The notes: generated from the letters alone by a model not told the origin. DNA of 64,000 bases from an uncultured Holophagae bacterium (GCA_963797055.1 CAWCOD010000011.1:37538-101537); one strand, 5' to 3'. Positions 34,336-50,784 are shown, counted from the first letter of the stretch. Program-made: numbers and translations.

Positions 34336-35721
34336 CTATTTCCGGGAAGCGTCGTCGTCGGCGAGACCGAGCCGGTGAATCATCTCGTTGAGGGTGGTGG
34401 GACTGAGCTGGAGCAGCTTCGCCGCCCGCCGTTGAACCCCCTGGGACTGCGCCAGGGCCTCACGAATGAGACGACCCTGGTAGTCGGCCACGGCCTCACG
34501 GAAGTCCACTCCCTCCGCCGGGATTTCATCCATGGGCAACTCGAGACGCCCCCCGCCACGCATCGCTTGAGGCAATTCGTCGAGATCGATCGTGCTGTCG
34601 AGACAGAGCACCACGGCTCGTTCGACGGCGTTCTCCAGCTCCCGGACATTACCGGGCCACCTGTATTCGGCGAGTGCGTCCATAGCCTGGGGGGTGAATC
34701 CCTCCACATCACGATCGTTCTCCACAGCGTACATCTTGAGGAAGTGGGCCGCCAGCAGCGGGATATCCTCCCTGCGGTCCCGCAGCGGCGGCATCTCGAT
34801 GCCGATGACGTTGAGGCGGTAATACAGGTCCTCGCGGAATCGACCTTCCTCCACCTCGCGCCAGAGATCCACGTTGGTGGCAGCCACGAGCCGCACATCC
34901 ACCGACATGGAGTCCACCCCACCAACCCGACGGATCTCGCGCTCCTGGATGACCCGCAGCAGCTTGGTCTGGGTCTCCAGTGAGACAGTCCCCACTTCAT
35001 CGAGGAAGAGCGTGCCCCCGTGCGCCGCCTCGAACAGACCCTTGCGGCTCGATACGGCACCGGTGAACGCGCCCTTGACATGGCCGAATAGGGTGGACTC
35101 GAGCAGCTCGGACGGAATGGCGCTGGTATGCACCGGAACGAAGGGGCCATCGTGCCGAGAGCTCAGGCGGTGGACCGCTCGCGCCACGAGTTCCTTGCCG
35201 GTTCCCGACTCACCCGAGATCAGGATGTTGGTTCGCGCCGGCGCCGCCCGCCGAATCAGTTCGAAGGTTTCCTGGATCCGTCGACCCGTGCCGACAATCT
35301 CCCCCATCCCATCGAGCCGGCTTCGCAGCAACAGGTTTTCCACCTGCAAGTGACGTCGCTCCGCAGCTCGCCGCACAAGATGGAGGACCTCTTCGTTCTT
35401 GAAGGGCTTGGGGACATAGTGGAAAGCCCCCTGGCGCATTGCCTCGATGGCCGATTCCACCGACGAGTATGCTGTGATCACAACCACGGGGAGATGGGGA
35501 TCGTGGGCCCTGATCTCGGGCAAGATTTCGAGGCCCGAACGATCCGGCAACATCAGATCGAGCAGCACCACGTCGACCTCTTCGTCGCGGAGGACACGCA
35601 GGCCCTCCTCGGCGGTCATTGCGGGGTGGTAGTCAAAGCCATTATTGACCAGCAGGGTTCCGAGCACGTCCTGCAGGACGGGCTCGTCGTCGATTACGAG
35701 AACGCTACCGGCTCCGGGCAT
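34336..35721 (-). CDS. Sigma-54-dependent response regulator (NtrC family)
   Basis: Receiver domain, GESGTGKE, GAFTGA, WPGNVRELEN, Fis-type HTH. Confidence 0.96.
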   Translation of the reverse strand: MPGAGSVLVIDDEPVLQDVLGTLLVNNGFDYHPAMTAEEGLRVLRDEEVDVVLLDLMLPDRSGLEILPEIRAHDPHLPVVVITAYSSVESAIEAMRQGAFHYVPKPFKNEEVLHLVRRAAERRHLQVENLLLRSRLDGMGEIVGTGRRIQETFELIRRAAPARTNILISGESGTGKELVARAVHRLSSRHDGPFVPVHTSAIPSELLESTLFGHVKGAFTGAVSSRKGLFEAAHGGTLFLDEVGTVSLETQTKLLRVIQEREIRRVGGVDSMSVDVRLVAATNVDLWREVEEGRFREDLYYRLNVIGIEMPPLRDRREDIPLLAAHFLKMYAVENDRDVEGFTPQAMDALAEYRWPGNVRELENAVERAVVLCLDSTIDLDELPQAMRGGGRLELPMDEIPAEGVDFREAVADYQGRLIREALAQSQGVQRRAAKLLQLSPTTLNEMIHRLGLADDDASRK

Positions 35722-38369
35722 TGTTGCAGTCTTATAATGGCACACGTCCCTCCTTCGGGAGAGTTCGTGAGCGTGACCTCGCCTCCAAGCTGATCGATCA
35801 TATCACGTGTGATGGCCAGACCGAGACCGGTTCCACCGCGCTCGGTCTTGGTTGAAAAGAAGGGCTCGAAGACCTTTTCGATGATGTCCTCAGGTACCCC
35901 CGGCCCACGATCGACCACCCGGATCTCGGCCGACTCACCGCGCCCATCCACCTCGACGGTGACCCGTGAATCGCCGTCCGACGCCTCCACGGCATTGCGC
36001 ACCAGATTGCTCACCGCGAGTTCGATAGGACCCGGCGCACCCCACACGAAGATCGGTTCCACGAAACCCCGGAGTTCCAGCCGGTCGTTCGCGCCCAGCG
36101 ACCGCGCCGCATCCTGGGCGGCGCGCGCCACAACCGAGCCCAGCTCCATCGGTGAACGGCCCTCCCGGCTGCCACGGACCGCCTCGCGCAGGTTTGACAC
36201 GATCCGCGACACCCTGAAGCTCTGGTCCACCAGCTTGCCCACCAGCGAGGACCGTGGATCGTTGGAGGGAGTCATCTCACCCAGCATCTGGGCAAACGAA
36301 GCGATCCCCGTCAACGGAGTATTGATCTCGTGGGCCAGCCCCGAGGCGAGGCGGCCGAGCGCGGCCAGACGATCCTGCTCCCGGAGCCTATCCTGAAGAG
36401 CCCGCAGCTCGGTGACATCCTGGAGGACGACCACCCGACCGTTGAAACTGCCGGTGTCGAGTTCAAGCACCGACACCGCCATCACAACCCTGCGCGGCGG
36501 ATCGGATTTCGTTGTGCCCTCTGCGTTCGCCGCGTGCAGCGGCAGGCTGTCCTGCCACCCTTCGGGCAGGTGGACAAGCTCGCTCAGCCCCTGGCCGACG
36601 AGCTCGGCAGCCTCGTGGTCGAAAATTCCCGCCGCTTCGGAGTTGGCGGACAGGATCCTGCCGCCCGCATCACAGACCAGAATCGCCGCCGCCGAGCTTT
36701 CAATGATCCGCTGTGTGTTGGCGTGGAGGATCCGGTACTCCTCCGCCTGATGGCGGAGGTCGTCCAGGTATCGGGCACTTTCGAGGGCCAGCGCGGCCTG
36801 GGAGGTGAATGCAGCCACCACCTCCTGACCCTCGGTCCCGAGGGGGAAAATGCCCCGTCGCAACCCGAGATAGAGCAGTCCATGGATCGTGCCGACGCGT
36901 TCCAGCGGGATGCGCACCGTATAGCCCTCGGTCTCGAGCGAGACCTCGCTCTGGTCGGGGTACTCGTGGTCCACCACCGGAAATGGCAACCGCTCCGGCA
37001 GACCGTCGCCGGCGCCGGTGATGCGAGTGAAGCTCCCGTCGCCGCTGCGCAGGTAGCTCGCCACCAGTTCCATCTCGAGACCGTCGGTCAACGTCTGCGA
37101 CAGCTGGGTCAGCAGCTCACGGGGATCGGTAATGCGCGCCAGATCGCGCAGCGAGTGGGTGAGCAGGGCCCGCGGAGCAGGGCGGCCGTGGTGGAGCCAC
37201 TGGTCCAGAAACCGTTCCACCCGGAGCCGGATCGGTTGCAAGAGAACCACGAGCAGCACACCGGTGGCAAAGGCGAACAGGTTGCGCAGGGAGCCGAAGT
37301 CCCCGGCGTACCGCTGCAGCGTATGGTCGGTCAGGCTGAAGATCAGGCCGCCCACCACCAGAACCAGGGTCGCTGACAGGGTATCGCGGGTGATCGGTTC
37401 CAGATCCCAAAGCCGGTAGTCGGTGAGAGCGGCCAGAATGCCCAGCGGGGCCGCAGCGATGGGAAAGACCGCGAGCCACGAGAACGGCTCGTAACCGATA
37501 CCGAGCCAGCCCGCCAAAAGCACCAGGCAGGTGTATGGGGCCAATCCCACGATCAACCCCAAGGCCAGCCACTCGATCTGACGGCGCAAACGGGCGACCC
37601 GTGCCGCCGCTGTCCACCGTCGGACCTGGAGTGCTGTTCCGTACAGCAGGGCCGCACCGAACATCACCCTGAGGACGTAGGTCGCGACCTGCCACCAGCC
37701 CTCGAGATTCGGGGTCAGGGCGGTACTGGCCGCGGTCAGCACAGCCACCACCGTCAACACGTCCCAGCCCAACATGGACCGCCGACGCTCGGGAAAAATG
37801 GAGAAGAACCGCACGATGAGGAATGGAAGAGCGGTGCTCGCCGCCCGGTGGATCACCTGCAGGATCTGCTGGCCTGCCGCCGTGCGGACCGGGATGCTCC
37901 CGACCAGCACAGCCGAGACGGCCAACAGGAGAAAGGTCGCCGACTCTCTGCGACGGGTGAAGAAAACCGCCCACAGCGCACAGCCGAGACCAAAGAGTCC
38001 AACCACCGAACGGGCCAGGTACAGGCTGTCGATGGTGGGCGGCGGCGGGTGGAAGACAACCACACGTTCCGCACCCTTCGGTGATCGCACGGTGATCCTG
38101 TGTTCCTCACCCACCGACAGCGAGAAGAGGGGATCTTCGAGTCGGTTGACGGCGGTTCCGTCCACCGCGACGACGAGATCGCCATCCGCCAGACCCGCCT
38201 CCTGCGCCGAGGAGCCCGCGGGAATCGAGGTGACCCGAACACCCTCTTCGATCCAGGCAGCCGGGAAATCGAGGCGGTAGAACGACCGCACCGTTCGGAT
38301 CAGAGACGTGCCCGCCACCGCCACCGTGGCGATGAAAACGAGCAGCAGCAGCAGGCGACGGGTGAACAC
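35694..38369 (-). CDS. Membrane sensor histidine kinase (PDZ, TMs, GAF-like, PAS, HisKA, HATPase)
   Basis: AGLADGDLVVAVDG PDZ, AHEINTPL, NLVRNA, DRGPG, FEPFFSTK, GTGLGL. Confidence 0.94.
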   Translation of the reverse strand: MFTRRLLLLLVFIATVAVAGTSLIRTVRSFYRLDFPAAWIEEGVRVTSIPAGSSAQEAGLADGDLVVAVDGTAVNRLEDPLFSLSVGEEHRITVRSPKGAERVVVFHPPPPTIDSLYLARSVVGLFGLGCALWAVFFTRRRESATFLLLAVSAVLVGSIPVRTAAGQQILQVIHRAASTALPFLIVRFFSIFPERRRSMLGWDVLTVVAVLTAASTALTPNLEGWWQVATYVLRVMFGAALLYGTALQVRRWTAAARVARLRRQIEWLALGLIVGLAPYTCLVLLAGWLGIGYEPFSWLAVFPIAAAPLGILAALTDYRLWDLEPITRDTLSATLVLVVGGLIFSLTDHTLQRYAGDFGSLRNLFAFATGVLLVVLLQPIRLRVERFLDQWLHHGRPAPRALLTHSLRDLARITDPRELLTQLSQTLTDGLEMELVASYLRSGDGSFTRITGAGDGLPERLPFPVVDHEYPDQSEVSLETEGYTVRIPLERVGTIHGLLYLGLRRGIFPLGTEGQEVVAAFTSQAALALESARYLDDLRHQAEEYRILHANTQRIIESSAAAILVCDAGGRILSANSEAAGIFDHEAAELVGQGLSELVHLPEGWQDSLPLHAANAEGTTKSDPPRRVVMAVSVLELDTGSFNGRVVVLQDVTELRALQDRLREQDRLAALGRLASGLAHEINTPLTGIASFAQMLGEMTPSNDPRSSLVGKLVDQSFRVSRIVSNLREAVRGSREGRSPMELGSVVARAAQDAARSLGANDRLELRGFVEPIFVWGAPGPIELAVSNLVRNAVEASDGDSRVTVEVDGRGESAEIRVVDRGPGVPEDIIEKVFEPFFSTKTERGGTGLGLAITRDMIDQLGGEVTLTNSPEGGTCAIIRLQQCPEPVAFS

Positions 38370-38384
38370 CTCTTGAGTATAGGT

Positions 38385-38725
38385 AAGTCAGGGAGCAGGG
38401 AGTAGGGGGCAGTCGGCAGGCCCTCCATCCGCCCTCGCTATGGGGCGATGAGGCGATGAGGCTATGGGGCCATAAGATCCCGAGCCCGAGCCCGTTTCCG
38501 TTGCCGACTGCAGACCGAAGAACAAAAGCCCGCTTCCGCCCCGCAAGCCCACAGATCACACAGATGACGGGCTGAAAGGCTCGGGCCGCCCTGGCCAATT
38601 CATCGCGCCCTCCCGTCCTTCCCCCCTTCCCCACTTCTCACCCAGCCACTGGGCCGTGACGTGATTCCAGCCGATTCAGGTGAGTGGGAATTTTTGAATT
38701 CCGAATTCCGCATTTCGAATTGGGC
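38385..38725. repeat. Mosaic of short tandem tracts with 7-, 8-, 6- and 9-nt periods
   Basis: GGGAGCA/GGGAGTA, GGCGATGA/GGCTATGG, CCCGAG/TCCGTT, CACAGATCA and GAATTCC tracts in succession. Confidence 0.7.
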
Positions 38726-38739
38726 CAAGGGGCCGCGCC

Positions 38740-39744
38740 TCACTCGTCTTCGATCAAGACCTCCTCGCGGAGCATGGCACGCACCGTCAGCGCTACCCGA
38801 CCCCGGCTGTAGGGCAGGCGATCGGCCAGGGTTTCCCAACCCGTGTGTTCCACGGTCAATTCGTGACGGATCTGGTCCACAAGATCGAGATCGACGCCGA
38901 TGTCGGGCGATGGCGGCGCGCCCGTAGGACGAAGCCGCTTCCCAGCGGAAACGGTGGATTCGAATCGGTCCAACTCGTCCTGCATCCGGGCGGCCTCGAT
39001 GAGCAACGGCTGGAGGACCAGAGAGTCGGAGAGAGACGGCGGACGGCGAATTGTCCTGAAACTGAAGGTACCGTGTTCGGGCGGGTTCATGAGGATTTCG
39101 AACAGGGCCTCGGAACCTTCCAGTGCGCCACGGCTGATCGGGCCGACCCGGCGGTCGTGGGTGTGAACGGTACCAAAGGGACGACCCCGACCATCCAGCA
39201 CCTCGAGGACTCCATCGGAGTCAGAACTGACCACCGTCTGGAGGATGGTCGGCAGGTCGAAGTGGTCGATGCGACCGCCCAACTTTGTCTCCTGATGCCC
39301 GCCGAGGTTGGCGAAGGTCCCCTCCAAGCGCCGGGCCAGATTCTGGAGGTAATGCATGGACAGATCGCGGGATTCGAAGAGCCGCCTCAGGATCAGAGGC
39401 CGGGGCCACTGAAGGGTCGCCCCCCCCTCGGGGAAGCGTGCCAGCGAACTGAATGGCGTCCCGGTGATGACCTTGCTTTCCGCGAGGGTGGCACCCGGTC
39501 CCCGGTAGGCCACCGGTTCCATATCACCTCCGGAACCTCCTTGTCGGCTGATCTCCACCACCCCTTCAACCACCAGATAGAGCGCGGTGGGAAGTTGGCG
39601 CGGCCGGAAGAGAATCTCCCCGTCACGGTGGCGGAAGATCTGCGCGATTTCAGCCAAGGCCACCCGCTCTTCGTAGGCGACGGCGTGGAAAAAGCCACTC
39701 TCGGTGACGAACTTGACGAGATCAGGTTGACGCATCTTCAGCAT
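38740..39744 (-). CDS. Cyclic-nucleotide-binding domain + DUF4388-like domain protein
   Basis: GEILFR..LYLVVEGVVEI..GPGATLAE cNMP fold, LGGRIDHFDLPTILQTV..GVLEV, and a C-terminal wHTH-like segment. Confidence 0.82.
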   Translation of the reverse strand: MLKMRQPDLVKFVTESGFFHAVAYEERVALAEIAQIFRHRDGEILFRPRQLPTALYLVVEGVVEISRQGGSGGDMEPVAYRGPGATLAESKVITGTPFSSLARFPEGGATLQWPRPLILRRLFESRDLSMHYLQNLARRLEGTFANLGGHQETKLGGRIDHFDLPTILQTVVSSDSDGVLEVLDGRGRPFGTVHTHDRRVGPISRGALEGSEALFEILMNPPEHGTFSFRTIRRPPSLSDSLVLQPLLIEAARMQDELDRFESTVSAGKRLRPTGAPPSPDIGVDLDLVDQIRHELTVEHTGWETLADRLPYSRGRVALTVRAMLREEVLIEDE

Positions 39745-39819
39745 CTATCTTACCCAAATCGGGCTTTTCAAGGTGAATATCCGGGCGTCCCGTCACTGCC
39801 CGCGGATACAATAGAGCCC

Positions 39820-42165
39820 ATGGTGTCGAATCCCGCCGCCCTTCAGGCTTTCCAACGGGTCCTGACAGAAGACCTGCGGCCGCCGGCCTACCTCACTCCC
39901 GAGGAGGTGCGCGGCGGTTGGCGCGACCTGTTTCCAGAACTTGCCGCCTGCCTCCCGGCCCCCTACCCAATTTTCGGAACCGACGAAGAGAAGATCATCA
40001 CCTACGGGTATCCCATCCTGATCTCGGAGGGCATCTGGAAACTACGGCGTGAGTTGGACAAGCTCGTTCTCTTGGAAACCAAATATCGAATGGGTGGTCC
40101 CGGCGGCGGCACCACCAAGGACCATGTTGCGGCACAACGAGATCGCTACGGCCGCGCAACCACCACCATCATCGAAAACGTCCTGATGAACGACTACGGT
40201 CGGGGGCTGAGCGAGGTCTTTCTCCTCTTCCACTCCGGAGACGTGGTCCGGGGCCTCGGCCAGGTCGCGAAACAGATCCAACTCAACTGGCCCAATGCCG
40301 GTCGGGATGCCGCGGAGGAGACGCGACAATTCATCACCGGGGTCTTTGGCGAGCTGATTCAACGCGCCGTCGTGCGCGCCACCGAGTCCCTCAAACGGCT
40401 GGCCGACGGTCCCTCAGGTATCCGGATTTCTCCCGTCTTGGCGGCGGTGTGCAACGATCAGCTGTTACTGAGCGAAAGCCAAGCTCCGGCCAACCTCGAG
40501 CGACTGAGCGGCTATTTCCGCTACCGGCTCAAGCAGGACCCTCAGGGTTTTATCAGCGCCAGCGAAAAGGCCCTCCGCCGACTCGCCGATCTGATCCGTC
40601 GCCACCCGGAGATCGGTTCCCTGCTGTCCACATCCGGAGCCGGGAAGCTGCGTCTCGATCAGGTTTCCACACTGCTCGACCCGGCATTGCTCAACGCGCT
40701 GGAATCGGCCAAGTTGATCTCGACTCTCGATCTGTCGACCAAACAGGTGAGGTTTCTCCGTGAGCTCGGCCTCCGTCTCAAGAGCTTCGAGCTGCTCGCC
40801 ACCCTACGGCGGCGGATCCAACCCATGGAACGTCGAGGATCCCAGCTCGTGTTGGCCGGCGCGTCCTCGGCCACCGCGATCGCGCCGTCCACCCGCCCCT
40901 TCGACTTCGCCTCACCCGGGGTCGTGGAGTCACTGGTTCGTCGCTGTGGCCTGGTGTACGACCTGACAAATTTCACCTCCGTCCTCGAGGCGGTACGCAA
41001 GGAGGGTCGTGCGGCCGAGGAGAAGGCTCTCCAATTCATGTACGTCTTTCAGAATCGGCTCGACGAGATCCGCAGGCGGAGGGTTCTCAACTTCGAGAAG
41101 TTCCTCGGTGACGGTGCGCTCTACTCGTCCCGTCGTGCGGTTCGAGTGCTGGTCGCAGCGTGTGAGATCCAACTCGTCTACGACCACCTTCGATCCAGCG
41201 GATTCCCGTTCGATCAGGGCATCCGGATCGCCCTCAACTTCGGAACCTATCGGTTACTCCCCATGTTCAACCGCGGCACCGGACCTCTCCGCTTCGAGTT
41301 CTTCGGGCACGGAATCGTCGAGCTGGCTCGTTTGACCACCGGGAAGAGCACCCGTGAGCTCGAGGAAATCGCGGAGTTCCTCGTCCATGCCGGTTACGAT
41401 CCCGACAGGGTGGACTCATTTCTCGCTCCCCTGATGGAGGCCCGCAGCGGTCACGGCGCCGCCGGCACCCGGCGGTACCCAGCCACCATCGACTCCCGCG
41501 GCGAACTCATCAACGAGGGCGTGGTTCTGACCGCTCAATTCCTGGAGGAACTCGACAAGGACCTCGAGGGAAGCCCGGTGGGAACCGTGAAGTTCGACGG
41601 CCTCGACTGGGCGACCATCGCCCTCGACCAAAAGGACCCGGACACCATCCACGTGGGCCTCCGGCTGCTCGGCGTGGCACGGCTCAAGGGCCTGTCGCCT
41701 CAGGAGCTGGTGGAGGCCGTGGTGTGGGAGGAGCTCCCCGCGGAGCCCCGATCCGTCGGTGTCGTGCGCGACCTCCTCCAGACCCTGCGTCGTGTGGCCG
41801 CATCGCCATCTGACAGCCACGAATACGAGGATTTCGAAGAACCCGAAGAGATCATCCCGGAGAACCTCGTGGCGATCACATACCTGGACCAGGACAACCA
41901 CCGCGACTGGATCTTCGGTATGTATCGAGACAGCGACGACGTGGTGCTGAACGCCGTCCACGTCCCGATCCAGACCCCCGAACTCGGACGCGACGAGCCG
42001 TTGGAAACATGGTTGTTCAGGAATCGCCACGAGCTGGCTCGGTTGTACGAGGGCGTCCGTCGGAGTACGGTCGGTGCTCCCGCACCACTGTCGTCGCTCC
42101 GGAAACTCAACGGGTTCCTAGCCTGTTTTTTGACCGCGCCTCACAGGGCCCCAGGCCGACGGTGA
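39820..42165 (+). CDS. Large protein with a divergent class III nucleotidyl cyclase-like domain
   Basis: YDLTNFT, EKFLGDGA, IRIALNFG, FEFFGHGIVELARL, LKG. Start at ATG 39820; the upstream ORF part is antisense to the neighbouring gene. Confidence 0.75.
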   Translation: MVSNPAALQAFQRVLTEDLRPPAYLTPEEVRGGWRDLFPELAACLPAPYPIFGTDEEKIITYGYPILISEGIWKLRRELDKLVLLETKYRMGGPGGGTTKDHVAAQRDRYGRATTTIIENVLMNDYGRGLSEVFLLFHSGDVVRGLGQVAKQIQLNWPNAGRDAAEETRQFITGVFGELIQRAVVRATESLKRLADGPSGIRISPVLAAVCNDQLLLSESQAPANLERLSGYFRYRLKQDPQGFISASEKALRRLADLIRRHPEIGSLLSTSGAGKLRLDQVSTLLDPALLNALESAKLISTLDLSTKQVRFLRELGLRLKSFELLATLRRRIQPMERRGSQLVLAGASSATAIAPSTRPFDFASPGVVESLVRRCGLVYDLTNFTSVLEAVRKEGRAAEEKALQFMYVFQNRLDEIRRRRVLNFEKFLGDGALYSSRRAVRVLVAACEIQLVYDHLRSSGFPFDQGIRIALNFGTYRLLPMFNRGTGPLRFEFFGHGIVELARLTTGKSTRELEEIAEFLVHAGYDPDRVDSFLAPLMEARSGHGAAGTRRYPATIDSRGELINEGVVLTAQFLEELDKDLEGSPVGTVKFDGLDWATIALDQKDPDTIHVGLRLLGVARLKGLSPQELVEAVVWEELPAEPRSVGVVRDLLQTLRRVAASPSDSHEYEDFEEPEEIIPENLVAITYLDQDNHRDWIFGMYRDSDDVVLNAVHVPIQTPELGRDEPLETWLFRNRHELARLYEGVRRSTVGAPAPLSSLRKLNGFLACFLTAPHRAPGRR

Positions 42166-42205
42166 ACCTCCCGGCCCGAGACACGATGGCGTTAAATGTT
42201 AGATT

Positions 42206-43111
42206 TTAGCTTTCGAGGGTCTCCTCGAGGATCCTGGTGTAGCTGCCGTATCTCTCCCCGTCGATGAGGCCGTCCGCCACCGCGGTCAGGACGGCACAAT
42301 CGGGTTCGTGGATGTGGGAACAGTTGGCGAAGCGGCAGTTCTCGGCAACCCCCGCGATCTCCGGGAAGGCTCCTTCCAACTCGATCCGGTCAGCTTGCCA
42401 CAGACCGAACTCCTTGAGCCCGGGCGTGTCCACGACGAAGCCGCCGTAGGGCAGCGGCATCAACTCAGCCATGGAGGTGGTGTGGGTCCCCTTGCCCGTG
42501 GCCTCTGAGATGGAGCCCACCTTGAGCCTGAAGCCCGGATAGACCGCGTTCAGGAGGGACGACTTGCCCGCACCCGACGGACCGCAAAACAGTGTTGTCC
42601 GGGCCTCGAGACGCCGTTTCACCCGACCGAGCCCCCAGCCCGACCGAGCCGAAACCTGCAGCACCTCATAGCCAAGGACCTGATAGACGGGCAGCCAGTT
42701 CGCCAAGGGTTCCATACCCTGGTCGGTCTTGTTGATGGTGATCACGGCCTCGACGCCCGCCAGATGGCACGCGGCAAGGAATCGGTCCAACAGCCCCCTC
42801 TTGGGCTCCGGTAGCCGGGCTGCGAAAACCAGCAGCGCCTGGTCCACATTGGCCGCGATCACTTGTGGCCGAGGAGAGTTCGGCGCCCGCCGGATGATGC
42901 TGTTCGCACGGCTGTGCACCGCCACCACCACGCCCTCATCGTCCCTGATCTCCACCGACACTCGATCGCCAACCACCAGCCGGGCGGCGGGCGGTGTTCC
43001 ACCCTCCCAGTTGAGCCTTCGCCTCGAGGACACCACCATGGTCTCCTCCTCCACTTGCACCCGCACCAGCGGGCCGTGCATCGCGATGACCGTGCCTTCC
43101 AGCAGCTCCAT
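42206..43111 (-). CDS. rsgA: Ribosome small subunit-dependent GTPase
   Basis: VVGDRV, ANVD, NKTD, GPSGAGKSS, GTHTT, DTPG, CRFANCSHIHEPDC. Confidence 0.96.
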   Translation of the reverse strand: MELLEGTVIAMHGPLVRVQVEEETMVVSSRRRLNWEGGTPPAARLVVGDRVSVEIRDDEGVVVAVHSRANSIIRRAPNSPRPQVIAANVDQALLVFAARLPEPKRGLLDRFLAACHLAGVEAVITINKTDQGMEPLANWLPVYQVLGYEVLQVSARSGWGLGRVKRRLEARTTLFCGPSGAGKSSLLNAVYPGFRLKVGSISEATGKGTHTTSMAELMPLPYGGFVVDTPGLKEFGLWQADRIELEGAFPEIAGVAENCRFANCSHIHEPDCAVLTAVADGLIDGERYGSYTRILEETLES

Positions 43112-43127
43112 GGGACCGATAGTATAG

Positions 43128-43715
43128 CCGCCCACCCGGAGAGGGATGTGCGCTTGATGGGCGGGCGTTCCACTCCGGGCACCTTGAGGTTGAAAGTTGA
43201 AAGTTAAACGTTGAACGTTCCCACCGACCCACCCGGATCGTGAAAGGCACAATGGGCGCGATGATCGGGCGTGCCGTCTTTGACATTGTTGGGAATTCAG
43301 GGGACGTGATCACTCAGTAGGTGGGTCCCAACAATGTCAAAGGGGGCAACCTGCCGGCGGCAGCGGTTGTGGCGTGGCCGTGTGCGGCGGCCATGTCCGA
43401 TCCTGTACGCAGGATCAGAGGCCTTACGGCCACCCGCTGGTGACGGCTGGTCACCGCGGCCACCGGCCGCGAGTAACCTCGGGGAGCGCGACGGGGAGAT
43501 CGGCGCGACGAAATCAGTGAATCTAAGCGAACGCGCTCACCCGGTGCCAGGCACCGTCGAAATCGAGTCGTAGTGCGAGGTCGACACATCTGCGGCGGTG
43601 CCTGGCACCGACATGGAGATCGGAATACGAGGGGGGCAACCTGCCGGCGGCAGCGGCCGTGGCCGTGTGCGCCGGCCACGTCCGATCCTGTACGCAGGAT
43701 CAGAGGCCTTGCGGC
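43128..43715. repeat. Largest composite intergenic repeat, with an internal ~85-bp direct duplication
   Basis: Core motif, (TTGAAAG)n, co-varying hairpin, GGTGACCAGCCGTCACC, GCGCTCCCC and paired GGTGCCWGGCACC. 43342-43430 resembles 43632-43715. Confidence 0.9.
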
Positions 43716-46700
43716 GTGCGGACGATGGTCGGTGGCCGTGAGGCAAGCTCGTCAACCGCCTGACAGAAGCGCGCAAAGGCGGGATACTCCTCTGGCGACA
43801 CGGTCCGCGCCGGAACCTCCAGGGTCATCACCGAACGGTGCCAATCACCGTCAACTCCAAGTTCCTCCTCCAACGATCCCCAGGGGGAGCTCAGACGCCG
43901 CGGCGGACGATCCACGATCCATCCCGCCGGCGGCAGAATCTCGGTGACCACCCTCTCGGTGATGGCCATTCGGAGTTCCAAGGGGTACTCCCTGGCCGGC
44001 AGCGACGCAAGCGACGGCACCAGAGGTCTGGCGATCACCAGGCCTCGGCACACCATCCGCTCCCCTGTCCTGTCACAGGCCCCGGGCAGCCTCAGCTCGA
44101 GCCGAAGTTGGGTGTCAACCCCCGAGGTCTCCACCGAGCCTGTCACCTCAGCCGCACCCGGGAACAGGTTATTCGCCATCCGCACGAAGAGCTGCTCCAC
44201 CCGGTCCGCCGGAATACTCTCAATCTGTGCCACCAGCTGTTCCCCGTCGGAGCCCTCCAAGGGCATCACGAAGTCGAGGGAAGCGCCGCCGGCGGCGTCT
44301 ATGGATGCCGCCAAGGAGATCCTCTGACGATACGCCGGGTTCGGGAACGACGGGAGTTCGGCGAGAAAGGTCACCGGCCGATTGGGGTCGGACAGGGGGA
44401 GCACGAGACCGTCACCCCCCTGGTAGATCGGCTGGATATGGTTCACTCCTGCCAGACGTTCCTCGAGATCGATCCAGATCTGACCCGAATCCCGCTGGAC
44501 CCTCAGCAACGGTTCCCCGAAGGTCTCCAGGGTGGGCACTTCGAGATGAACCCCGGCAAGCGGCGCGGGCCGTCCCAGCACCAGATCCACATCCCAACCG
44601 GCGGCGATGAGCGCAGCGGCGATGATCCCGAGGCGGTTGCCCTCCCGACGAGAGAAGCCCTGACCCGCGGTGATCGACAGATCCATATCGCGCCGCCCAG
44701 CGGCCACCTCGTCGAGCACTCCCTCCACCAGACTTCTCACCGCCGCCTCGTCGTCGGTTTCCGCGAGAATCGGAGCGCTCCAATCGCGGAGTTCCGGTGA
44801 GGTCCGGAATACCCACAACATGCGATCCCGCATGATGTCGCCAACGTCCTGCCACGTCACCCCGAAGCTGTAGCTGACCCATGGTAGAAGATCCCGCGCC
44901 ATGGGAGACAGGGGTTCGAGGCGCAGCGGCGGTACGTCCTCATTCAGCCAGCGGATGGCATGGAGCCCATCGTGATCCCATTCCTTGCGCTGGAGACCTT
45001 CGAAGTTGCCGTCCATCATGAGGTCGACGTCGTCGGGAACCAGCAGCAGGTACTCGGAGCGACCAAAGGCCCGGTTCTCGTCGGCAAACCGATAGACGTA
45101 GGGAGACATGTGGCCTCGACGCGAGGCGCCGGTGGGGCGCACACTGGCCACATATTCCTCCTCAACCAGGTCGCCCGCGGCGACGTCTCCCAGCACCAAT
45201 CCGCCGTTTCTGGCTTCCATCTGTGCAGGCACCACCACCCGACCGTCAGGCTTGATGATTCGAATCTTCAAAAGGAAGGCGTCCGGCATCTGCTGCAGCG
45301 TCGACGCCTGACGGGCACCCACCGGCGTCACCGCTCGGCTGACCCCGTGATAGTAGTAGAGGGCCGAGCCGTCCGAGTAGACGCGCTCCACTGCCTGGTC
45401 GAGCAGCAGCATCACATCCACCCCCTCGCCGGCGGTGAACTCCACGTCACGAATATCGTCCAGATCCACTCGAAAAGGTTCAAAGAACGACGTCAACCCG
45501 CGGCTCCAGGCAAGGGTCCGGAATTGGATATTCGAAGGATCGTTCTCGAGCGCCGCCGCCAGCGTCTCATCAAGGCTCGCATCGTCGGTCGCTTCCGAGA
45601 TCAGGCGCAGGTGGTCGCAAGCGGGCAGATCGCCCCACCGCTGCGCCGCCCAATCCAGTTCCTCCCGGGCCCGCTCCATATCACCCGCACCGATCAGCAG
45701 CCTGATCCTCGCGATATCCACGGAAGGGTCATCGACCCGATCCTCGATCCGATCGAGGGCCGACACCGCTTCGTCGGCCATACACCCAGTTGCCAGTGCC
45801 TCGATCCACTGCAACCTGACCGGATCGGTGCCGGCCACCGATTGCAGCAGGTCCCTCCGATCCTCCCACAGGTCGAGGGCTTCAAGCGCCGACAACCGAA
45901 GATCCATGACGCTGGGTGATTCAGGCAGCTCCGACTCCAGCCCTTCGATGCCTTCCTCGACCTCGCCCGCCCAACCGCGACGCAACGCTTCACGAACCCA
46001 CAGCTGCCGCACCCGGGCGTCATCTCCGTTGGATTCCACAACCTCGTCGAGCACCCGCTCCAGGTCTTCAGGGCGTTGCTCACGCAGCGCGAGTGCCCGT
46101 TCGGCGAGCTTCGACCCAGGAACATCTCCGGCATACCGCAACTCATCCCGAGCCCGCTGGTAGTCTGTTTCGGGGTCCTCTCCGGTGGCACCCATCAGGT
46201 AGTACCACGCCAGGGCCAGCCGCGGCCAGGGATCTCCAGGGGCCAGGTCCACGGCCTCCTCGAGCCGGGCCAGTTGTGAACGAGGATCGCCCCGGCCCGC
46301 CGCCAACTCGGCCGCCAGCAGCACCTCGGGGACCGTCGCCTGCCCATCGTCGATCCGTTCGGCCAGTGCCGCGGAGGCGGGCGGCAGCTGAAGCTCGGCT
46401 TTGGATCCCGCCCACGGGCCTCCAACGCCCGGCAGCACCACGGCGTCCACCGGAAATCCATCGGCGTCAAACAGGCTGACACGGGCTCGCGGCGTCATCC
46501 GCGATCCCATGGAGATCCGCAGCCGGTGGGTGCCGGGTCCGAGTTCCACTCGGAACCAGTTCACCTCGGGATCTTCCCGGCCACACAGACGGAGGCGCGC
46601 GAGAAGAACATCATCCAGTTCCACGTTGAGACCGCCGCTGCCCTCCACCACCATCCAACCATCCAGGTGTTGCTCAACCGCGAAGGTCCAGGCCGCCAGG

Positions 46701-47212
46701 GAGACGCCACCGGCATCCAGAGATTCGGGCGGCGCCACCGTGGCGTCGGGTGTTGTCATGAGCAGCCGATACGGCGACCAGACATGCGTCCAGGGCGTTT
46801 CCAGCGCCGGCAGATCGTCGTCGCCGGGAACCACATTTCTTTCCAGATCAAGATCATCGAAGACGCCGAAGGGGCCGGAAATCTCCACCGGCATCAAACT
46901 GCCGTCGGGCGGCCGACCGAGGATCTCCGCCGCGATTCGGGCCATGAGGAAACCGAGTTCAGGGTCGCGAGGACGCTCGTCGAAAAGCAGTATTTCACTC
47001 GGGTCCTGGAGATGGTTGAGGCTGTCCAACCACCACAGCGCGGCACCGACCCCGTCGGCGACAGTGGGGCCCTCGGCGACGGTATCCAGTGCTTTCTGGC
47101 GCGCCTCGTGAAGGTCGAAGTCCTGATCCGCCAGGTGGATATCCCACCAATCCGCCCACCCGAGAGAGGCGGCCAGCAGTGCGACGAGAACAGCCGTCAG
47201 GCGCCGTATCAT
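43700..47212 (-). CDS. Secreted TPR + DUF3857/transglutaminase-like protein, apparently lacking the catalytic Cys/His
   Basis: Signal peptide, TPR-like helices, LLDQAVERVYSDG, GDLVE. EGNRL where the paralog has GDCKD. Confidence 0.78.
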   Translation of the reverse strand: MIRRLTAVLVALLAASLGWADWWDIHLADQDFDLHEARQKALDTVAEGPTVADGVGAALWWLDSLNHLQDPSEILLFDERPRDPELGFLMARIAAEILGRPPDGSLMPVEISGPFGVFDDLDLERNVVPGDDDLPALETPWTHVWSPYRLLMTTPDATVAPPESLDAGGVSLAAWTFAVEQHLDGWMVVEGSGGLNVELDDVLLARLRLCGREDPEVNWFRVELGPGTHRLRISMGSRMTPRARVSLFDADGFPVDAVVLPGVGGPWAGSKAELQLPPASAALAERIDDGQATVPEVLLAAELAAGRGDPRSQLARLEEAVDLAPGDPWPRLALAWYYLMGATGEDPETDYQRARDELRYAGDVPGSKLAERALALREQRPEDLERVLDEVVESNGDDARVRQLWVREALRRGWAGEVEEGIEGLESELPESPSVMDLRLSALEALDLWEDRRDLLQSVAGTDPVRLQWIEALATGCMADEAVSALDRIEDRVDDPSVDIARIRLLIGAGDMERAREELDWAAQRWGDLPACDHLRLISEATDDASLDETLAAALENDPSNIQFRTLAWSRGLTSFFEPFRVDLDDIRDVEFTAGEGVDVMLLLDQAVERVYSDGSALYYYHGVSRAVTPVGARQASTLQQMPDAFLLKIRIIKPDGRVVVPAQMEARNGGLVLGDVAAGDLVEEEYVASVRPTGASRRGHMSPYVYRFADENRAFGRSEYLLLVPDDVDLMMDGNFEGLQRKEWDHDGLHAIRWLNEDVPPLRLEPLSPMARDLLPWVSYSFGVTWQDVGDIMRDRMLWVFRTSPELRDWSAPILAETDDEAAVRSLVEGVLDEVAAGRRDMDLSITAGQGFSRREGNRLGIIAAALIAAGWDVDLVLGRPAPLAGVHLEVPTLETFGEPLLRVQRDSGQIWIDLEERLAGVNHIQPIYQGGDGLVLPLSDPNRPVTFLAELPSFPNPAYRQRISLAASIDAAGGASLDFVMPLEGSDGEQLVAQIESIPADRVEQLFVRMANNLFPGAAEVTGSVETSGVDTQLRLELRLPGACDRTGERMVCRGLVIARPLVPSLASLPAREYPLELRMAITERVVTEILPPAGWIVDRPPRRLSSPWGSLEEELGVDGDWHRSVMTLEVPARTVSPEEYPAFARFCQAVDELASRPPTIVRTPQGL

Positions 47213-50200
47213 GGAATCTCCAACGGCCGCTTGAGACGCCGTTCCGCGTCCACCAGGAATTGTCGGAACTGGGGGGCATCAGCGGCGGTCACCGTCCCGG
47301 GCACGAGCTGGAAGAGTCCTGTAACCAGGTACCCGTTGCCAGACGCGGCGTAGTCCAACGACAGGGAACCGAACTGGGTATCGAGGTCCACCGAGGACGG
47401 CAGCGATCCTGGAGGTCGTCCAAGCTCCACTTCGAGGGTCCATTCGAGGACCGGACGCGCCGGCACCAGGAGGGGCCCGCTTCGATCCCCCTTGGGCGCC
47501 AACCGTGCCGCCCAGTCCAACTCACCGGGAAATGTGCTGACACCCCCGGCGCTGAGGAGAGCGGCCCGAGCGACCCGACCCTCGATCTCCATCACCGCGG
47601 GATCTCGGCCCGGGATCATTCTCAGCTCGGACTCCTCCACCAGCTCCGCCCCGGGAAATTGGCTCTGCAACCAGCGCGCGACACGGCGCGAGTCGCGGCT
47701 GCCGGCGAAGGTCGCCCGACGGTAATCAGCCGCCTCGCCCGTATCTTCGGTTCGGATTTTCAACGGAATGAGGCCGGCCTCCGCCACACCCAGCCGGTAC
47801 TGGTAACGGGCGAAACCCGCCCCTGGTGTCGGTGTGATCTGTGGCGCGCTGTCGATTCCGTCCACCACCAGCACCTGGGCACCCTGGCACATGGCGGGCG
47901 GAGGAAAGGCCGCATGGCCGGCCGCCGTACCATCCAACCATAAGTCGTCCTCCGGGAGGTATACGATGGCGTGATTGAAATTCTCCAGCAAGGCGAGATC
48001 GGACTCGGCCACCCCGAGATCCGAAGTCCGCACCATCACCATGAGGGCAGGGATGTCCACCGCTTCGAGGAGCGCCACCAGCAACCCGGCCTTGTCCTTG
48101 CAGTCACCGATCTTGTGGTTGAGCACCCAGTCCGCGGAGAACGGTCGGAAGCGGTGTTCGCCAAACTCCAGACCCACATAACGGATATCCGTCGTCACGA
48201 AACGATAGATGCGGGCGATCCGGTCGAGGCGATCGTCCACACCCTCCGTCAGCCGCGCCGCCTTTTCCTCCACCTGCCGCGAGGCCCGTATTCGGGGAGC
48301 GGTGTGCCGCTCGTACCACACGGCCAAGTCCCCCCAATCGGGGTGATTCGAGTACACCAGATGGGGGTTGAACTGCAGCACCGGCGCCGGTGGAGAGTCC
48401 TCGGGAACCGCTTGGAGATTCAACCAACGCCAGCTCAGGGTCACCGTTCCGTCGGGATTCTCGCTGCGAACGGGAACACCGTCGATGTGCACCAGGTCCC
48501 ACACCGGAAGCAGATCCTCCGGCCCACTCAGTTCCAGCTCCGCCAATCCCACCGCCTCCGGTTGGCCAATCTGCAACAGACCACCTTTGTAGGGGCCGGT
48601 GTCGTTGCTCTCAGCCGTTTCCGACAACACCCACGCCAGTTCGAGCAGATCACCGTCGGAGAGATCAAGGAACCGAAAGACCCGCAACCGGGCGTCGTAG
48701 TAGAGGTTGATCTCCGGTTCGGCGAGCCGCGGCGTGTCACTCTGTCGTGCGTTGACCTGGGTGCCGTCCCGTCTCAGGATCCTGGCCTCGAGAATGCGCA
48801 GCCGTTGGCGCTCGGGAACATGGGCGAGGGTACGTGTCAGATACTCATCGGCCCGTGCCGCGTCTCGGATCAAGTACACCTGCTGCGCCCTGGTCTCGGT
48901 CAATTGAGCCGGCAGGAACAGCACCTCGGTGTGGTCCAGGATCCGGACCGCCGGGCTGCCCTCGGGCGCCTTGTCAGCGAGAGCCCACAGCTCGTCAGGG
49001 CGGCGCAGCCACTGGAGATCCTCGGCCGCTTCGCCAAGAAAAGACAGCAGGCGCTGAGCCCGACGATCCTGGGGCCGCAGCTCGAGGATCTGCCGCGCCA
49101 GCTCGGTGGCCCGCTCGGTCTCGCCGGCATCGAACTCGACCCTGGCCAACTCCATCAGCAGTTCCAACTGGCCGGGACATCGATCCAATCCGTCGGACAG
49201 CACGCGGCGAGCCTCGTCGCGGCTTCCCGACACCGCCAACATTCGCGACAGACGCACCCTCACCGCCACCCAATTCGGGTCCTGGCGCAGTCTCTCGGTC
49301 AGCAGCTCGAGGATCCGGGCCGAGTCGCCGCAGTCCTCGGACAGCTGCTCCTCGAACTCCAGCGTCACCATGGCTCCCGGCACCAGCCCGCTCAGTCGAT
49401 CCGTTGCCTCCTGAGCCAGGTCCCAGCGGGTCAATCCGATGGCAAGGTCGCCGAAGGTGGCTGCGGCCGTGACGCAGGCCGGAGCCGACCTGGAGAGTTC
49501 TGCCGCCTTGGGAAGGATGACCTGCCCCCACAACTCCGCCTCCTGTTCGATGATGGCGGCGTGCACCGCCGGCACCGACTCCGCCACCGCCAGAATATCG
49601 GCCGCCTCCTGGTACAGGCCCCGGGCCTGGTACCACCGAGCCAGCTCGATTCGGGCCCAGTGGAGGTCCGGATCGTATGACACCGCACCCTCCAGCAGCT
49701 CGCGTTTGGCACCGGGTTCGGCCGGCAACATCCACTCCAACAACCTCGCCTCGCCCGGGGCTTCGGTCCGCGCCGCACGGCAGACCGATCTGGTGTCGTC
49801 TGCGCCCACCGGCTGCGGGTGTCGAGCCACCAGCAAGGCCGCAAGAGAGAGGGTCGCGCCCTCTCGGCCCCGGGCCATGGCGCTTCGGAGCTCATCCTCC
49901 AAGCCACGGACCTGGGGACGATTCCGGTCGACACTCATCGCCGGCGCGGGCGGCCGGTCGACTTCACGAACCCCTTCGAGCCGCGTGCCGTCGGGCGCCG
50001 TCAGCCGCAGCCTGAGCCACCAGTCGTCGCTCTCCGAAGCCACCGCCACCACGATGAGGTTTGGTCCAGCCGCGAGCCATCCGCCAGCCACATACTGATC
50101 CTCGGCGTGTCGCAGTGGTTGAGCCGTGGTGAGCATTTCCTGGCCGTTGAGCCAGACCCGAGCAACCTGTGCCGCCCCAAGCCGTATGGCCACAGGCTGC

Positions 50201-50784
50201 TGCTGATCACTGACCACCGTGGCCGAGAGGTGGAGAAGCTGGCGGCGCGCAGGCCACGCCATGCCACTGACCCGAACCCATCCCAGAGGATCGGTGCCGG
50301 GCACGGCCCGCCACTGAGCATCATCGGCCGGTATGCGGGCCTGTTCCGGGAAATCCTCGAGTTCGCCGATGGTCATCGGCCCATGGGCCCACCATGCAGT
50401 GATGCCTCCCATGGTCCGAAACAGCTCCCTCGCGGCCGACGGCCGACCGGCCTCCACCGCGAGCATCGACCGAATCCAGCGCACCTCGTCCGACATCAAC
50501 GGATCCATCGGCCGGGCGGCCGCCAACCGATCCACCGAGCGCTCCGCCAGGCCCCAGTCTTCGAGGGTGAAACGCCAGCTGAAGACGGTGAACAGATCAT
50601 GGAAATCGGTGGGATCGAGGCCCTGCACCACGGCCGTCTCGACGTGATCCTGCACCTGCTGGTCGATGGTGACCGACCCACCCCAGACGGCGCTCGTCAA
50701 CAAAATGCATACGGTCATCACTCCCGACAGCTTCCATCGGGTCCTGGCGCCGTTTCGGTCAACTCCCAACCATCCGCGCATCAC
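47209..50784 (-). CDS. TPR + DUF3857 + transglutaminase-like protein with intact Cys-His-Asp triad
   Basis: IRYVGLEFG, GDCKDKA, FNHAI, WLDGT. Start uncertain (50784 or 50718). Confidence 0.88.
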   Translation of the reverse strand: MMRGWLGVDRNGARTRWKLSGVMTVCILLTSAVWGGSVTIDQQVQDHVETAVVQGLDPTDFHDLFTVFSWRFTLEDWGLAERSVDRLAAARPMDPLMSDEVRWIRSMLAVEAGRPSAARELFRTMGGITAWWAHGPMTIGELEDFPEQARIPADDAQWRAVPGTDPLGWVRVSGMAWPARRQLLHLSATVVSDQQQPVAIRLGAAQVARVWLNGQEMLTTAQPLRHAEDQYVAGGWLAAGPNLIVVAVASESDDWWLRLRLTAPDGTRLEGVREVDRPPAPAMSVDRNRPQVRGLEDELRSAMARGREGATLSLAALLVARHPQPVGADDTRSVCRAARTEAPGEARLLEWMLPAEPGAKRELLEGAVSYDPDLHWARIELARWYQARGLYQEAADILAVAESVPAVHAAIIEQEAELWGQVILPKAAELSRSAPACVTAAATFGDLAIGLTRWDLAQEATDRLSGLVPGAMVTLEFEEQLSEDCGDSARILELLTERLRQDPNWVAVRVRLSRMLAVSGSRDEARRVLSDGLDRCPGQLELLMELARVEFDAGETERATELARQILELRPQDRRAQRLLSFLGEAAEDLQWLRRPDELWALADKAPEGSPAVRILDHTEVLFLPAQLTETRAQQVYLIRDAARADEYLTRTLAHVPERQRLRILEARILRRDGTQVNARQSDTPRLAEPEINLYYDARLRVFRFLDLSDGDLLELAWVLSETAESNDTGPYKGGLLQIGQPEAVGLAELELSGPEDLLPVWDLVHIDGVPVRSENPDGTVTLSWRWLNLQAVPEDSPPAPVLQFNPHLVYSNHPDWGDLAVWYERHTAPRIRASRQVEEKAARLTEGVDDRLDRIARIYRFVTTDIRYVGLEFGEHRFRPFSADWVLNHKIGDCKDKAGLLVALLEAVDIPALMVMVRTSDLGVAESDLALLENFNHAIVYLPEDDLWLDGTAAGHAAFPPPAMCQGAQVLVVDGIDSAPQITPTPGAGFARYQYRLGVAEAGLIPLKIRTEDTGEAADYRRATFAGSRDSRRVARWLQSQFPGAELVEESELRMIPGRDPAVMEIEGRVARAALLSAGGVSTFPGELDWAARLAPKGDRSGPLLVPARPVLEWTLEVELGRPPGSLPSSVDLDTQFGSLSLDYAASGNGYLVTGLFQLVPGTVTAADAPQFRQFLVDAERRLKRPLEIP

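Follow-up and report, generated by a model that had tools for sequence, protein, structure and literature searches.

A very divergent class III cyclase-fold protein encoded head to head with a cyclic nucleotide-binding-fold/PATAN protein in an uncultured Holophagae bacterium

The two genes described here form a divergent pair on a 64,000-nucleotide stretch of DNA (the window) from an uncultured Holophagae bacterium (GCA_963797055.1 CAWCOD010000011.1:37538-101537). One gene encodes a 781-amino acid protein (P1), for which structure prediction confirms a full class III nucleotidyl cyclase fold interrupted by a two-helix insertion; the other encodes a 334-amino acid protein (P2) that joins a cyclic nucleotide monophosphate (cNMP)-binding-like domain to a PATAN (DUF4388) domain. 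We consider it fairly probable, with real room for doubt, that P1 is a very divergent class III cyclase and that P2 is a separate adaptor, which belongs with the histidine kinase and the NtrC-type regulator encoded on its other side. P1 and P2 are both genuine conserved genes, with 281 homologues at E<=1e-3 among 8000 candidates scored for P1 and 184 among 8000 for P2.

39820..42165, plus strand: P1, 781 amino acids (aa), divergent class III cyclase-homology-domain protein (translation of the open reading frame (ORF), homologues, model and fold matches)
38740..39744, minus strand: P2, 334 aa, cNMP-binding-like domain, PATAN/DUF4388 domain and small helical C-terminal domain (Pfam, AlphaFold2)

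The fold of P1 was identified with an AlphaFold2 model. An alignment of 65 P1-family sequences, which are 24-89% identical to P1, is the basis of this model and of all column counts given below; the mean predicted local distance difference test (pLDDT) value of the model is 90.4. Every top match listed by Foldseek is a class III adenylyl or guanylyl cyclase (probability 1.00, best E 8e-7). The sequence-only reading of this DNA had described P1 as an atypical class III cyclase-like protein, and the structure prediction together with the Foldseek run bore this out. Aligned with VIA-align, the model matches the cyclase homology domain (CHD) of Rv1900c (1ybu_B) with Z 19.1 and a root mean square deviation (rmsd) of 2.0 Å over 161/163 residues in the model range 370-636; the values for CyaB of P. 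aeruginosa (3r5g_B) and for Ma1120 are Z 19.1 and Z 18.9, respectively, all within 370-636. The fold of the whole domain is thus the same as in these class III adenylyl and guanylyl cyclases (Rv1900c, 1ybu; CyaB, 3r5g; M. avium Ma1120, 4wp8/5d0e; Z 18.9-19.1, rmsd 2.0-2.9 Å), and approximately 160-180 residues are aligned across a span of 267 residues. A wide fold search that is independent of Foldseek (48,161 representative chains) placed the purine-specific class III adenylyl and guanylyl cyclases highest (Z 15-19), followed by the Pycsar pyrimidine cyclases (Z 13-15), the cyclase-like ATP-binding protein 6yii (Z 12.7) and the palm domains of Cas10 and GGDEF proteins (Z 9-11).

39820..40869, plus strand: P1 N-terminal domain, residues 1 to ~350, mostly helical (DSSP of the model)
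40897..41739, plus strand: P1 cyclase homology domain, residues ~360-640 (fold matches, hhalign)
41347..41481, plus strand: helical insertion in the cyclase domain, residues ~510-554, with helices 510-523 and 528-543 in the model
41803..42162, plus strand: P1 C-terminal domain, residues ~662-781, absent from the ~670-aa forms and preceded by a low-pLDDT linker (666-673)

The active site was mapped by comparing a profile of 10 canonical CHDs, taken from 21 that were cut from PF00211 genes of related genomes, with the P1 core; the remaining 11 were left out because their extended translations met a stop codon. The two profiles align over 140 columns (hhalign Prob 73.8%, E 2.9e-5), and the alignment pairs the following residues.

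40960..40962, plus strand: D381, first metal-binding Asp (YDLTNFT), aligned to the Asp of FADIVGFT; 65/65 sequences
41098..41112, plus strand: K427 (purine-contacting Lys) to D431 (second metal-binding Asp) in EKFLGDG, aligned to DKFIGDA; each 65/65
41224..41226, plus strand: R469, Arg of strand 4 (GIRIALN), aligned to vRvAi; 65/65
41296..41331, plus strand: E493, V500, E501 and R504 in FEFFGHGIVELARL, aligned to DYTVLGNTVNIAARL of the canonical CHDs
41686..41688, plus strand: K623 in LGVARLKGL, counterpart of the terminal conserved Lys (LG...LKG); 64/65

The motifs that had been quoted for P1 from the sequence alone, YDLTNFT with D381, EKFLGDG with K427 and D431, and FEFFGHGIVELARL with E493, V500, E501 and R504, were all found in the protein, and the profile alignment to canonical cyclases reproduced the assignment made from them: two Asp, the Lys, Asn replaced by Val and Arg kept. 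K623 was placed by an hhalign comparison of the composite domain, which pairs LG~a~LKGL with the canonical lG~~~l~Gls. P1 accordingly has in common with class III adenylyl and guanylyl cyclases the two metal-binding Asp, the purine-contacting Lys, the two Arg and the Lys of the terminal motif, and it differs from them elsewhere in the active site. The second base-specifying position, canonically Asp or Thr, is E493 in P1 (Glu in 61/65, Asp in 2, Gln in 2), and the position of the catalytic Asn is occupied by V500 (Val in 58 of the 65, Ile in 5, Ala in 1, Leu in 1), with Asn in none. The Glu that follows this Val (E501) is invariant (65/65), as is the transition-state Arg, R504 (65/65). The transition-state pair of Asn and Arg is therefore reduced to its Arg in 65/65 sequences. 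Class III cyclases that use GTP carry a base-specifying pair of Glu and Cys/Ser, among others; the pair in P1, Lys427 (65/65) and Glu493 (61/65), is neither of the ATP type (Lys and Asp/Thr) nor of the GTP type. P1 differs further in its layout, with a helical N-terminal domain of ~350 aa, a CHD split by the helical insertion of ~45 aa and a C-terminal domain of ~120 aa.

Judged from these columns, the loss of the Asn is a family-wide trait and no decay. That the enzyme is dead does not follow from it, since Ma1120 is reported to be active with Ala164 at the Asn position and Arg168 kept, and its A164N variant to lose activity drastically (PMC4215837); P1 resembles Ma1120 in having the Arg and no Asn. 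We weighed whether P1 could be a non-catalytic protein that binds nucleotides as a sensor or serves as a scaffold, comparable to 6yii, the class III cyclase-like ATP-binding protein from P. aeruginosa. The missing Asn in all 65 sequences, the failure of the Pfam cyclase model to recognise P1, the presence of 6yii among the fold matches (Z 12.7) and a gene context that is housekeeping rather than signalling are all in keeping with such a role. However, the metal-binding Asp, the Arg and the Lys pairs are invariant or nearly so at 24-89% identity, as would be expected of a functional active site, and canonical active cyclases score higher (Z 15-19) than 6yii. Together with the activity of Ma1120 with Ala at the Asn position, these invariant residues weaken the idea of a pseudoenzyme, which had been raised from the sequence, and we regard a non-catalytic P1 as unlikely. 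P1 is probably an active nucleotidyl cyclase, and its substrate is most likely ATP because of the pair of a Lys and a carboxylate.

Like other class III enzymes, P1 would most likely act in the form of a head-to-tail homodimer. In such a dimer, one chain would bind the two metal ions through D381 and D431, and the partner chain would contribute K427, E493, R504 and K623 to the binding of the base and the phosphates of a purine nucleoside triphosphate; the product would be a 3′,5′-cyclic nucleotide.

P1 is overlooked by sequence-based annotation. It has no match in Pfam (PF00211 included, E<=1), NCBIfam or PADLOC, and comparisons with PDB chains, both with the single sequence (phmmer) and with the profile (hmmsearch), gave chance matches only (E 0.08 or more). 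When the whole genome that contains the window was searched with PF00211, only a canonical gene on contig 9 was found and P1 was missed. An exhaustive phmmer search of 1.84 billion representatives yielded 169 relatives, all of which are members of the same family or fragments of them. The family comprises a form of ~778 aa and a form of ~670 aa; the alignment shows that the short form is without the last ~130 residues. Measured against the class III family, P1 thus misses two sequence-level features, the PF00211 model and the Asn, and its architecture is new. For the N-terminal domain there was no match in Pfam or NCBIfam and no usable match in the ESM Atlas, and matches to the cyclase domain crowded the lists of the fold searches; the C-terminal domain gave only leads below 0.8 in the ESM Atlas. 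Both domains were modelled as parts of the whole protein, which gives no ground for calling their folds new. The long forms end in a conserved HRAP/HRSP motif (residues 776-779, window 42145-42156).

In this group of Acidobacteriota, P1 is a core gene that is inherited vertically and mostly present in a single copy. In the family of the source organism it is present in 76/77 genomes. It was found in 123/201 genomes of the class and in 18/301 genomes of the phylum, of which a single one lies outside the class; in these two samples the scoring covered only part of the first-look candidates, so that absences are soft. Several families of the class have P1 almost universally (f1, 27/28; f2, 20/20; f4, 48/48), while three others have it in 0/27, 0/19 and 2/29 genomes, and usually there is a single match per genome in the class sample. 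The class tallies include genomes flagged as unpublished, three for P1 and two for P2, and no statement rests on them individually. A canonical PF00211 cyclase is also present in 21/21 related genomes, and P1 is therefore an additional cyclase beside the canonical one. In genome G504 (contig 27, 564676-566972) the P1 homologue is matched in two pieces (profile positions 5-272 and 303-749), which may point to a frameshift or a disrupted gene.

P2 consists of recognisable parts. Pfam assigns a cNMP_binding domain (PF00027) to residues 39-103 (30.7 bits, cut-off 27.5) and DUF4388 (PF14332) to residues 157-258 (31.4 bits, cut-off 25). The AlphaFold2 model (pLDDT 85.5) shows the cNMP-binding domain, a flexible linker, DUF4388 and a C-terminal domain of three helices.

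39301..39744, minus strand: cNMP-binding fold of P2, residues 1-148 (VIA wide search, Foldseek)
39445..39486, minus strand: degenerate phosphate-binding cassette, L87-S100, with Gly replaced by Ala88, Glu89 kept and Arg replaced by Phe98
38953..39282, minus strand: PATAN (DUF4388) domain, residues ~155-264 (Pfam 157-258, elements of the model)
38743..38934, minus strand: C-terminal helical domain, residues ~271-334, with helices 286-298, 303-309 and 314-326 in the model; no Pfam match

Residues 1-148 match the cNMP-binding domain of SLC9C1 (9ydf_A) with Z 18.1 and an rmsd of 2.1 Å over 130/131 residues in the VIA wide search. Further matches are Clr (Z 17.6), the cNMP-binding domain of PycTIR (Z 17.4) and numerous CRP, PKG and HCN domains; the Foldseek E-value is 3e-9. 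As in CRP/FNR proteins, this part of P2 has the cNMP-binding beta-roll and the C-helix (Z 14-18 to CRP, Clr, HcpR, DNR and the cNMP-binding homology domain of KCNH). It differs from them in its cassette, where the Arg is replaced by Phe or Leu and the Gly is not kept, and in its output domain, which is PATAN; no Crp-type helix-turn-helix (HTH) was found in Pfam. The cassette had been quoted from the sequence as LAE...TPFSS, and it reads so in P2 (A88, E89 ... P97, F98, S99, S100). In a phmmer alignment with CRP of M. tuberculosis, FGEL...PRTSS pairs with LAES...PFSSL. All 25 aligned members of the P2 family (25/25) carry Phe or Leu in place of the Arg; the Gly position is Ala, Gly or Ser, and Glu89 is replaced by Ala in three. 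The description of P2 as a cNMP-binding and DUF4388 protein that has lost the cassette Arg therefore holds in Pfam, in the CRP alignment, in all 25 members and in the fold (Z 18). By these alignments, the canonical contacts to the cyclic phosphate are gone across the P2 family, and P2, with its degenerate cassette, reads as something other than a canonical cNMP receptor. cNMP-binding homology domains that bind no cNMP exist.

PATAN corresponds to DUF4388/PF14332, and in the Synechocystis protein PixE it is described as an output domain that binds PilB1 and PilC (bioRxiv 10.1101/2021.06.11.447907). P2 shares this domain above the Pfam cut-off with the PatA-type regulators of cyanobacteria, but has an N-terminal cNMP-binding-like sensor instead of their C-terminal receiver domain. 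Since a receiver domain is missing (no Response_reg match in Pfam), P2 is not a PatA-type regulator, and there are no pilus genes beside P2 in the window. P2 has no NCBIfam or PADLOC match, and no Pfam HTH family matches it at E<=1, the C-terminal three-helix domain not having been searched by itself. The PATAN and C-terminal parts were modelled within the whole of P2, which gives no ground for calling their folds new. Our literature search found no paper that combines DUF4388 with cyclic nucleotide binding. A second DUF4388/PATAN domain is encoded on contig 3 of the same genome (93077-93559), inside a protein of ~800-900 aa that is kept in many genomes of the class, families without P1 among them.

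The gene order around P2 was compared in 80 public loci, in which neighbours were counted by tblastn. Two genes follow P2 in the window:

35694..38369, minus strand: PDZ-PAS-HisKA-HATPase histidine kinase, directly downstream of P2 on the same strand (Pfam)
34336..35745, minus strand: NtrC-type sigma-54 response regulator, overlapping the end of the kinase gene (Pfam Response_reg, Sigma54_activat and HTH_8)

P2 stands head to head with P1 in 34/80 loci; these are 34 of the 35 loci in which P1 is ~52% or more identical and there is room upstream, and P2 is next to P1 in 0/43 more distant loci. The kinase lies directly downstream of P2 in 34/34 P2-bearing loci. At the level of genomes, P2 is present in 51/77 members of the family (9/24 genera). 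In 46 of these 51 genomes it adjoins P1, in four it lies apart (G485, G486, G488 and G492), and one could not be assigned because both genes sit at the ends of contigs. In G485, G486 and G488, where P2 is at a distance from P1 (109 kb in G485), the kinase and then the NtrC-type regulator still follow it downstream on the same strand; YifB precedes P1 in all three. The gap between P2 and the kinase (38370-38739, minus strand) is ~370 nucleotides (nt) in the window and ~330-390 nt in the three relocated clusters. In the class, full-length P2 was found in 15/201 genomes versus 123/201 for P1. P2 is therefore the younger, lineage-restricted gene, and P1 is far older and wider. On balance, the kinase and the regulator are the stable partners of P2, and the head-to-head position with P1 is lineage-specific.

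The sequence-only reading had proposed that the two genes are a co-diverged module with a non-canonical nucleotide signal and that their synteny should be examined. The synteny stands in the family, where P2 adjoins P1 in 46/51 P2-bearing genomes, and does not extend to the distant loci, in which P2 is absent beside P1 (0/43). Co-divergence finds no support: P1 is found in 76/77 family genomes and P2 in 51/77, with 123 versus 15 of 201 in the class, the catalytic columns of P1 are unchanged where P2 is missing, and P2 is apart from P1 in four genomes, three of which keep the kinase and the NtrC-type regulator with it.

A dedicated pair would nevertheless be conceivable, in which P1 makes a non-canonical nucleotide, the P2 pocket senses it and PATAN relays the signal, perhaps to the kinase and the NtrC-type regulator. 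The genes are head to head with back-to-back -10-like elements, they adjoin in 34/35 loci at a P1 identity of ~52% or more and in 46/51 P2-bearing family genomes, and both proteins depart from the canon at sites that contact the ligand (Asn to Val and Asp to Glu in P1, Arg to Phe in P2). The fold of P2 matches the cUMP-binding domain of PycTIR as well (Z 17.4), though this is level with many cAMP and cGMP domains. However, the same P1 columns in P2-less lineages leave no co-divergence, P2 is unlinked in four genomes, the syntenic block is confined to one family so that the adjacency may be mere inheritance, and loss of the Arg removes the main contact to any cyclic phosphate. We think such a pair quite improbable.

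A bolder version of this scheme is very doubtful in our view: P1 would make a messenger other than plain cAMP or cGMP, the Lys/Glu pair and the Val-Glu that replaces the Asn would alter the handling of base or ribose, the Arg-less pocket of P2 would read the messenger in those genera that carry P2, and PATAN would pass the signal to the kinase and the sigma-54 regulator. If true, the chain from P1 through P2 to the kinase and regulator would be a three-tier circuit not described before.

An anti-phage pair of the Pycsar type, with a pyrimidine cyclase and a cNMP-activated effector, has a next to negligible chance: Pycsar systems are described as a cyclase and a receptor with a cNMP-binding domain (PMC11224242), P1 and P2 are likewise a cyclase-fold gene adjoining a cNMP-binding-fold gene, and Pycsar proteins appear among the fold matches of both (PycC Z 13-15, the PycTIR cNMP-binding domain Z 17.4), but these matches are weaker, purine cyclases fit P1 better than PycC, no PADLOC model matches either protein at E<=1, neither Pfam nor the predicted structure shows a TIR or membrane effector domain in P2, P2 is missing from most P1 genomes, and P1 is a near-universal, mostly single-copy core gene inherited vertically among housekeeping genes and no patchy island gene. 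The suggestion of a defence role, made from the pairing of the two genes, thus found no support in PADLOC or in the distribution of P1.

We therefore prefer the reading in which P1 is a divergent cyclase and P2 a separate adaptor. P2 would be a cNMP-binding-fold sensor without the Arg for the cyclic phosphate, fused to PATAN as an output domain for protein interaction, and we infer that it acts with the downstream PDZ-PAS histidine kinase and the NtrC-like regulator. Several points weigh against this reading. The link of P1 to class III cyclases rests on the predicted structure and a modest profile score, and the Pfam model misses P1. The Lys/Glu base pair is unusual, and the substrate of P1 is therefore uncertain. 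The placement of V500, E501 and N565 relative to the active site is drawn from alignment and topology, and in an alternative profile register, obtained once the 510-552 insertion is removed, the invariant N565 (GELINEG) falls on the position of the catalytic Asn. The absences counted in the class and the phylum are soft, as stated above. On the side of P2, three loci have the kinase beside P1 without P2, genome G492 has P2 without the kinase, and, with P2 adjoining P1 in 46 of the 50 genomes that could be decided, the two may still be functionally linked. The genomes with P2 all come from a single family, and synteny there extends over the whole block of seven genes; therefore the adjacency of P2 with P1 and that with the kinase are not independent evidence, and gene order is weak for any link.

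The register with N565 was rejected. Helix 497-507 comes after the hairpin of strands 4 and 5, as in canonical domains, V500 lies 31 residues past R469 versus 29 in canonical domains, and the invariant Arg504 is found at V500+4, whereas N565+4 is a Val.

The P1 family escapes annotation, since Pfam, NCBIfam and sequence searches against solved structures are all empty, and surveys of cyclic nucleotide signalling would therefore under-count the cyclases of this group. A conserved, mostly single-copy cyclase-fold gene is spread across much of an environmentally abundant and little-studied group of Acidobacteria, and our literature search found no paper that pairs Thermoanaerobaculia with adenylate cyclase. 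With Val and an invariant adjacent Glu, the family is also a natural experiment on the catalytic Asn. P2 is an uncharacterised fusion of a cNMP-binding fold with PATAN, and, with its stable partners on the other side, it shows that a neat head-to-head arrangement of two genes does not necessarily make a functional module.

The spacer between the two genes was analysed together with their starts.

39745..39819, no strand: divergent spacer with back-to-back -10-like hexamers, TACAAT at 39807-39812 (plus) and TAAGAT at 39752-39747 (minus)

The two ORFs were found as read from the sequence, and with the annotated starts the divergent spacer measures 75 base pairs (bp), as had been stated; it measures 84 bp if P2 starts at Met4. 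The P1 ORF sits within a longer open frame that starts at 38845. P2 probably starts at Met4 (39735), which would give a protein of 331 aa, because its nearest homologues have 331 aa and begin with MRQPDL, and because the conserved minus-strand hexamer at 39752-39747 is only 2 nt before Met1 and 11 nt before Met4. TACAAT at 39807-39812 is located 7 nt ahead of the ATG of P1. When the aligned orthologous spacers were compared by eye, TA[C/T/G]AAT was seen just upstream of the P1 start in 23/24, the single miss being attributed to a coordinate error. The distance to the P1 start is 6-7 nt in 20 spacers, the window counted, and 3 nt in three with estimated start coordinates. A consensus promoter scan of 38500-42400 found 0 sigma-70-type sites, and the -10-like hexamers come from the aligned spacers instead. 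The kinase gene has TATACT at 38376-38381 (minus strand), 6 nt before its GTG start. Such -10-like hexamers 6-11 nt before the starts of P1, P2 (Met4) and the kinase suggest leaderless transcripts. Rfam gave no match over 38000-42600 at E<=0.1.

The neighbourhood of P1 changes with the lineage. Its neighbours in the window are MnmA, RsgA and two large genes. The latter lie downstream on the minus strand and encode a protein of 1170 aa with no Pfam match (43700-47212) and a 1191-aa protein that carries TPR, DUF3857 and a transglutaminase core (47209-50784); in the P2-bearing loci their order relative to RsgA and P1 is conserved. In 35/46 P2-less loci (L040, L048, L079 and 32 others, from other genera of the family and the sister family) YifB/ComM, a Mg-chelatase-like AAA+ protein, is encoded directly upstream of P1 on the same strand (tblastn). 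YifB and P1 often overlap by 4 bp at stop and start, and a PhoH/PIN gene is often next; in the genome of the window YifB is on a different contig. None of YifB, PhoH/PIN, RsgA, the kinase, NtrC and P2 was found within ~5 kb of P1 in 20 distant loci. There, the ~670-aa homologues of distant families (L136-L150) have purC (SAICAR synthetase) directly downstream on the same strand in 14/20 loci, and an M17 leucyl aminopeptidase gene upstream in 6/20; this neighbourhood of the short forms may be plain synteny. Elsewhere in the window, a protein of 869 aa without Pfam match (25497-28106) is adjoined by a dynamin-family GTPase of 584 aa (28778-30532, minus strand).

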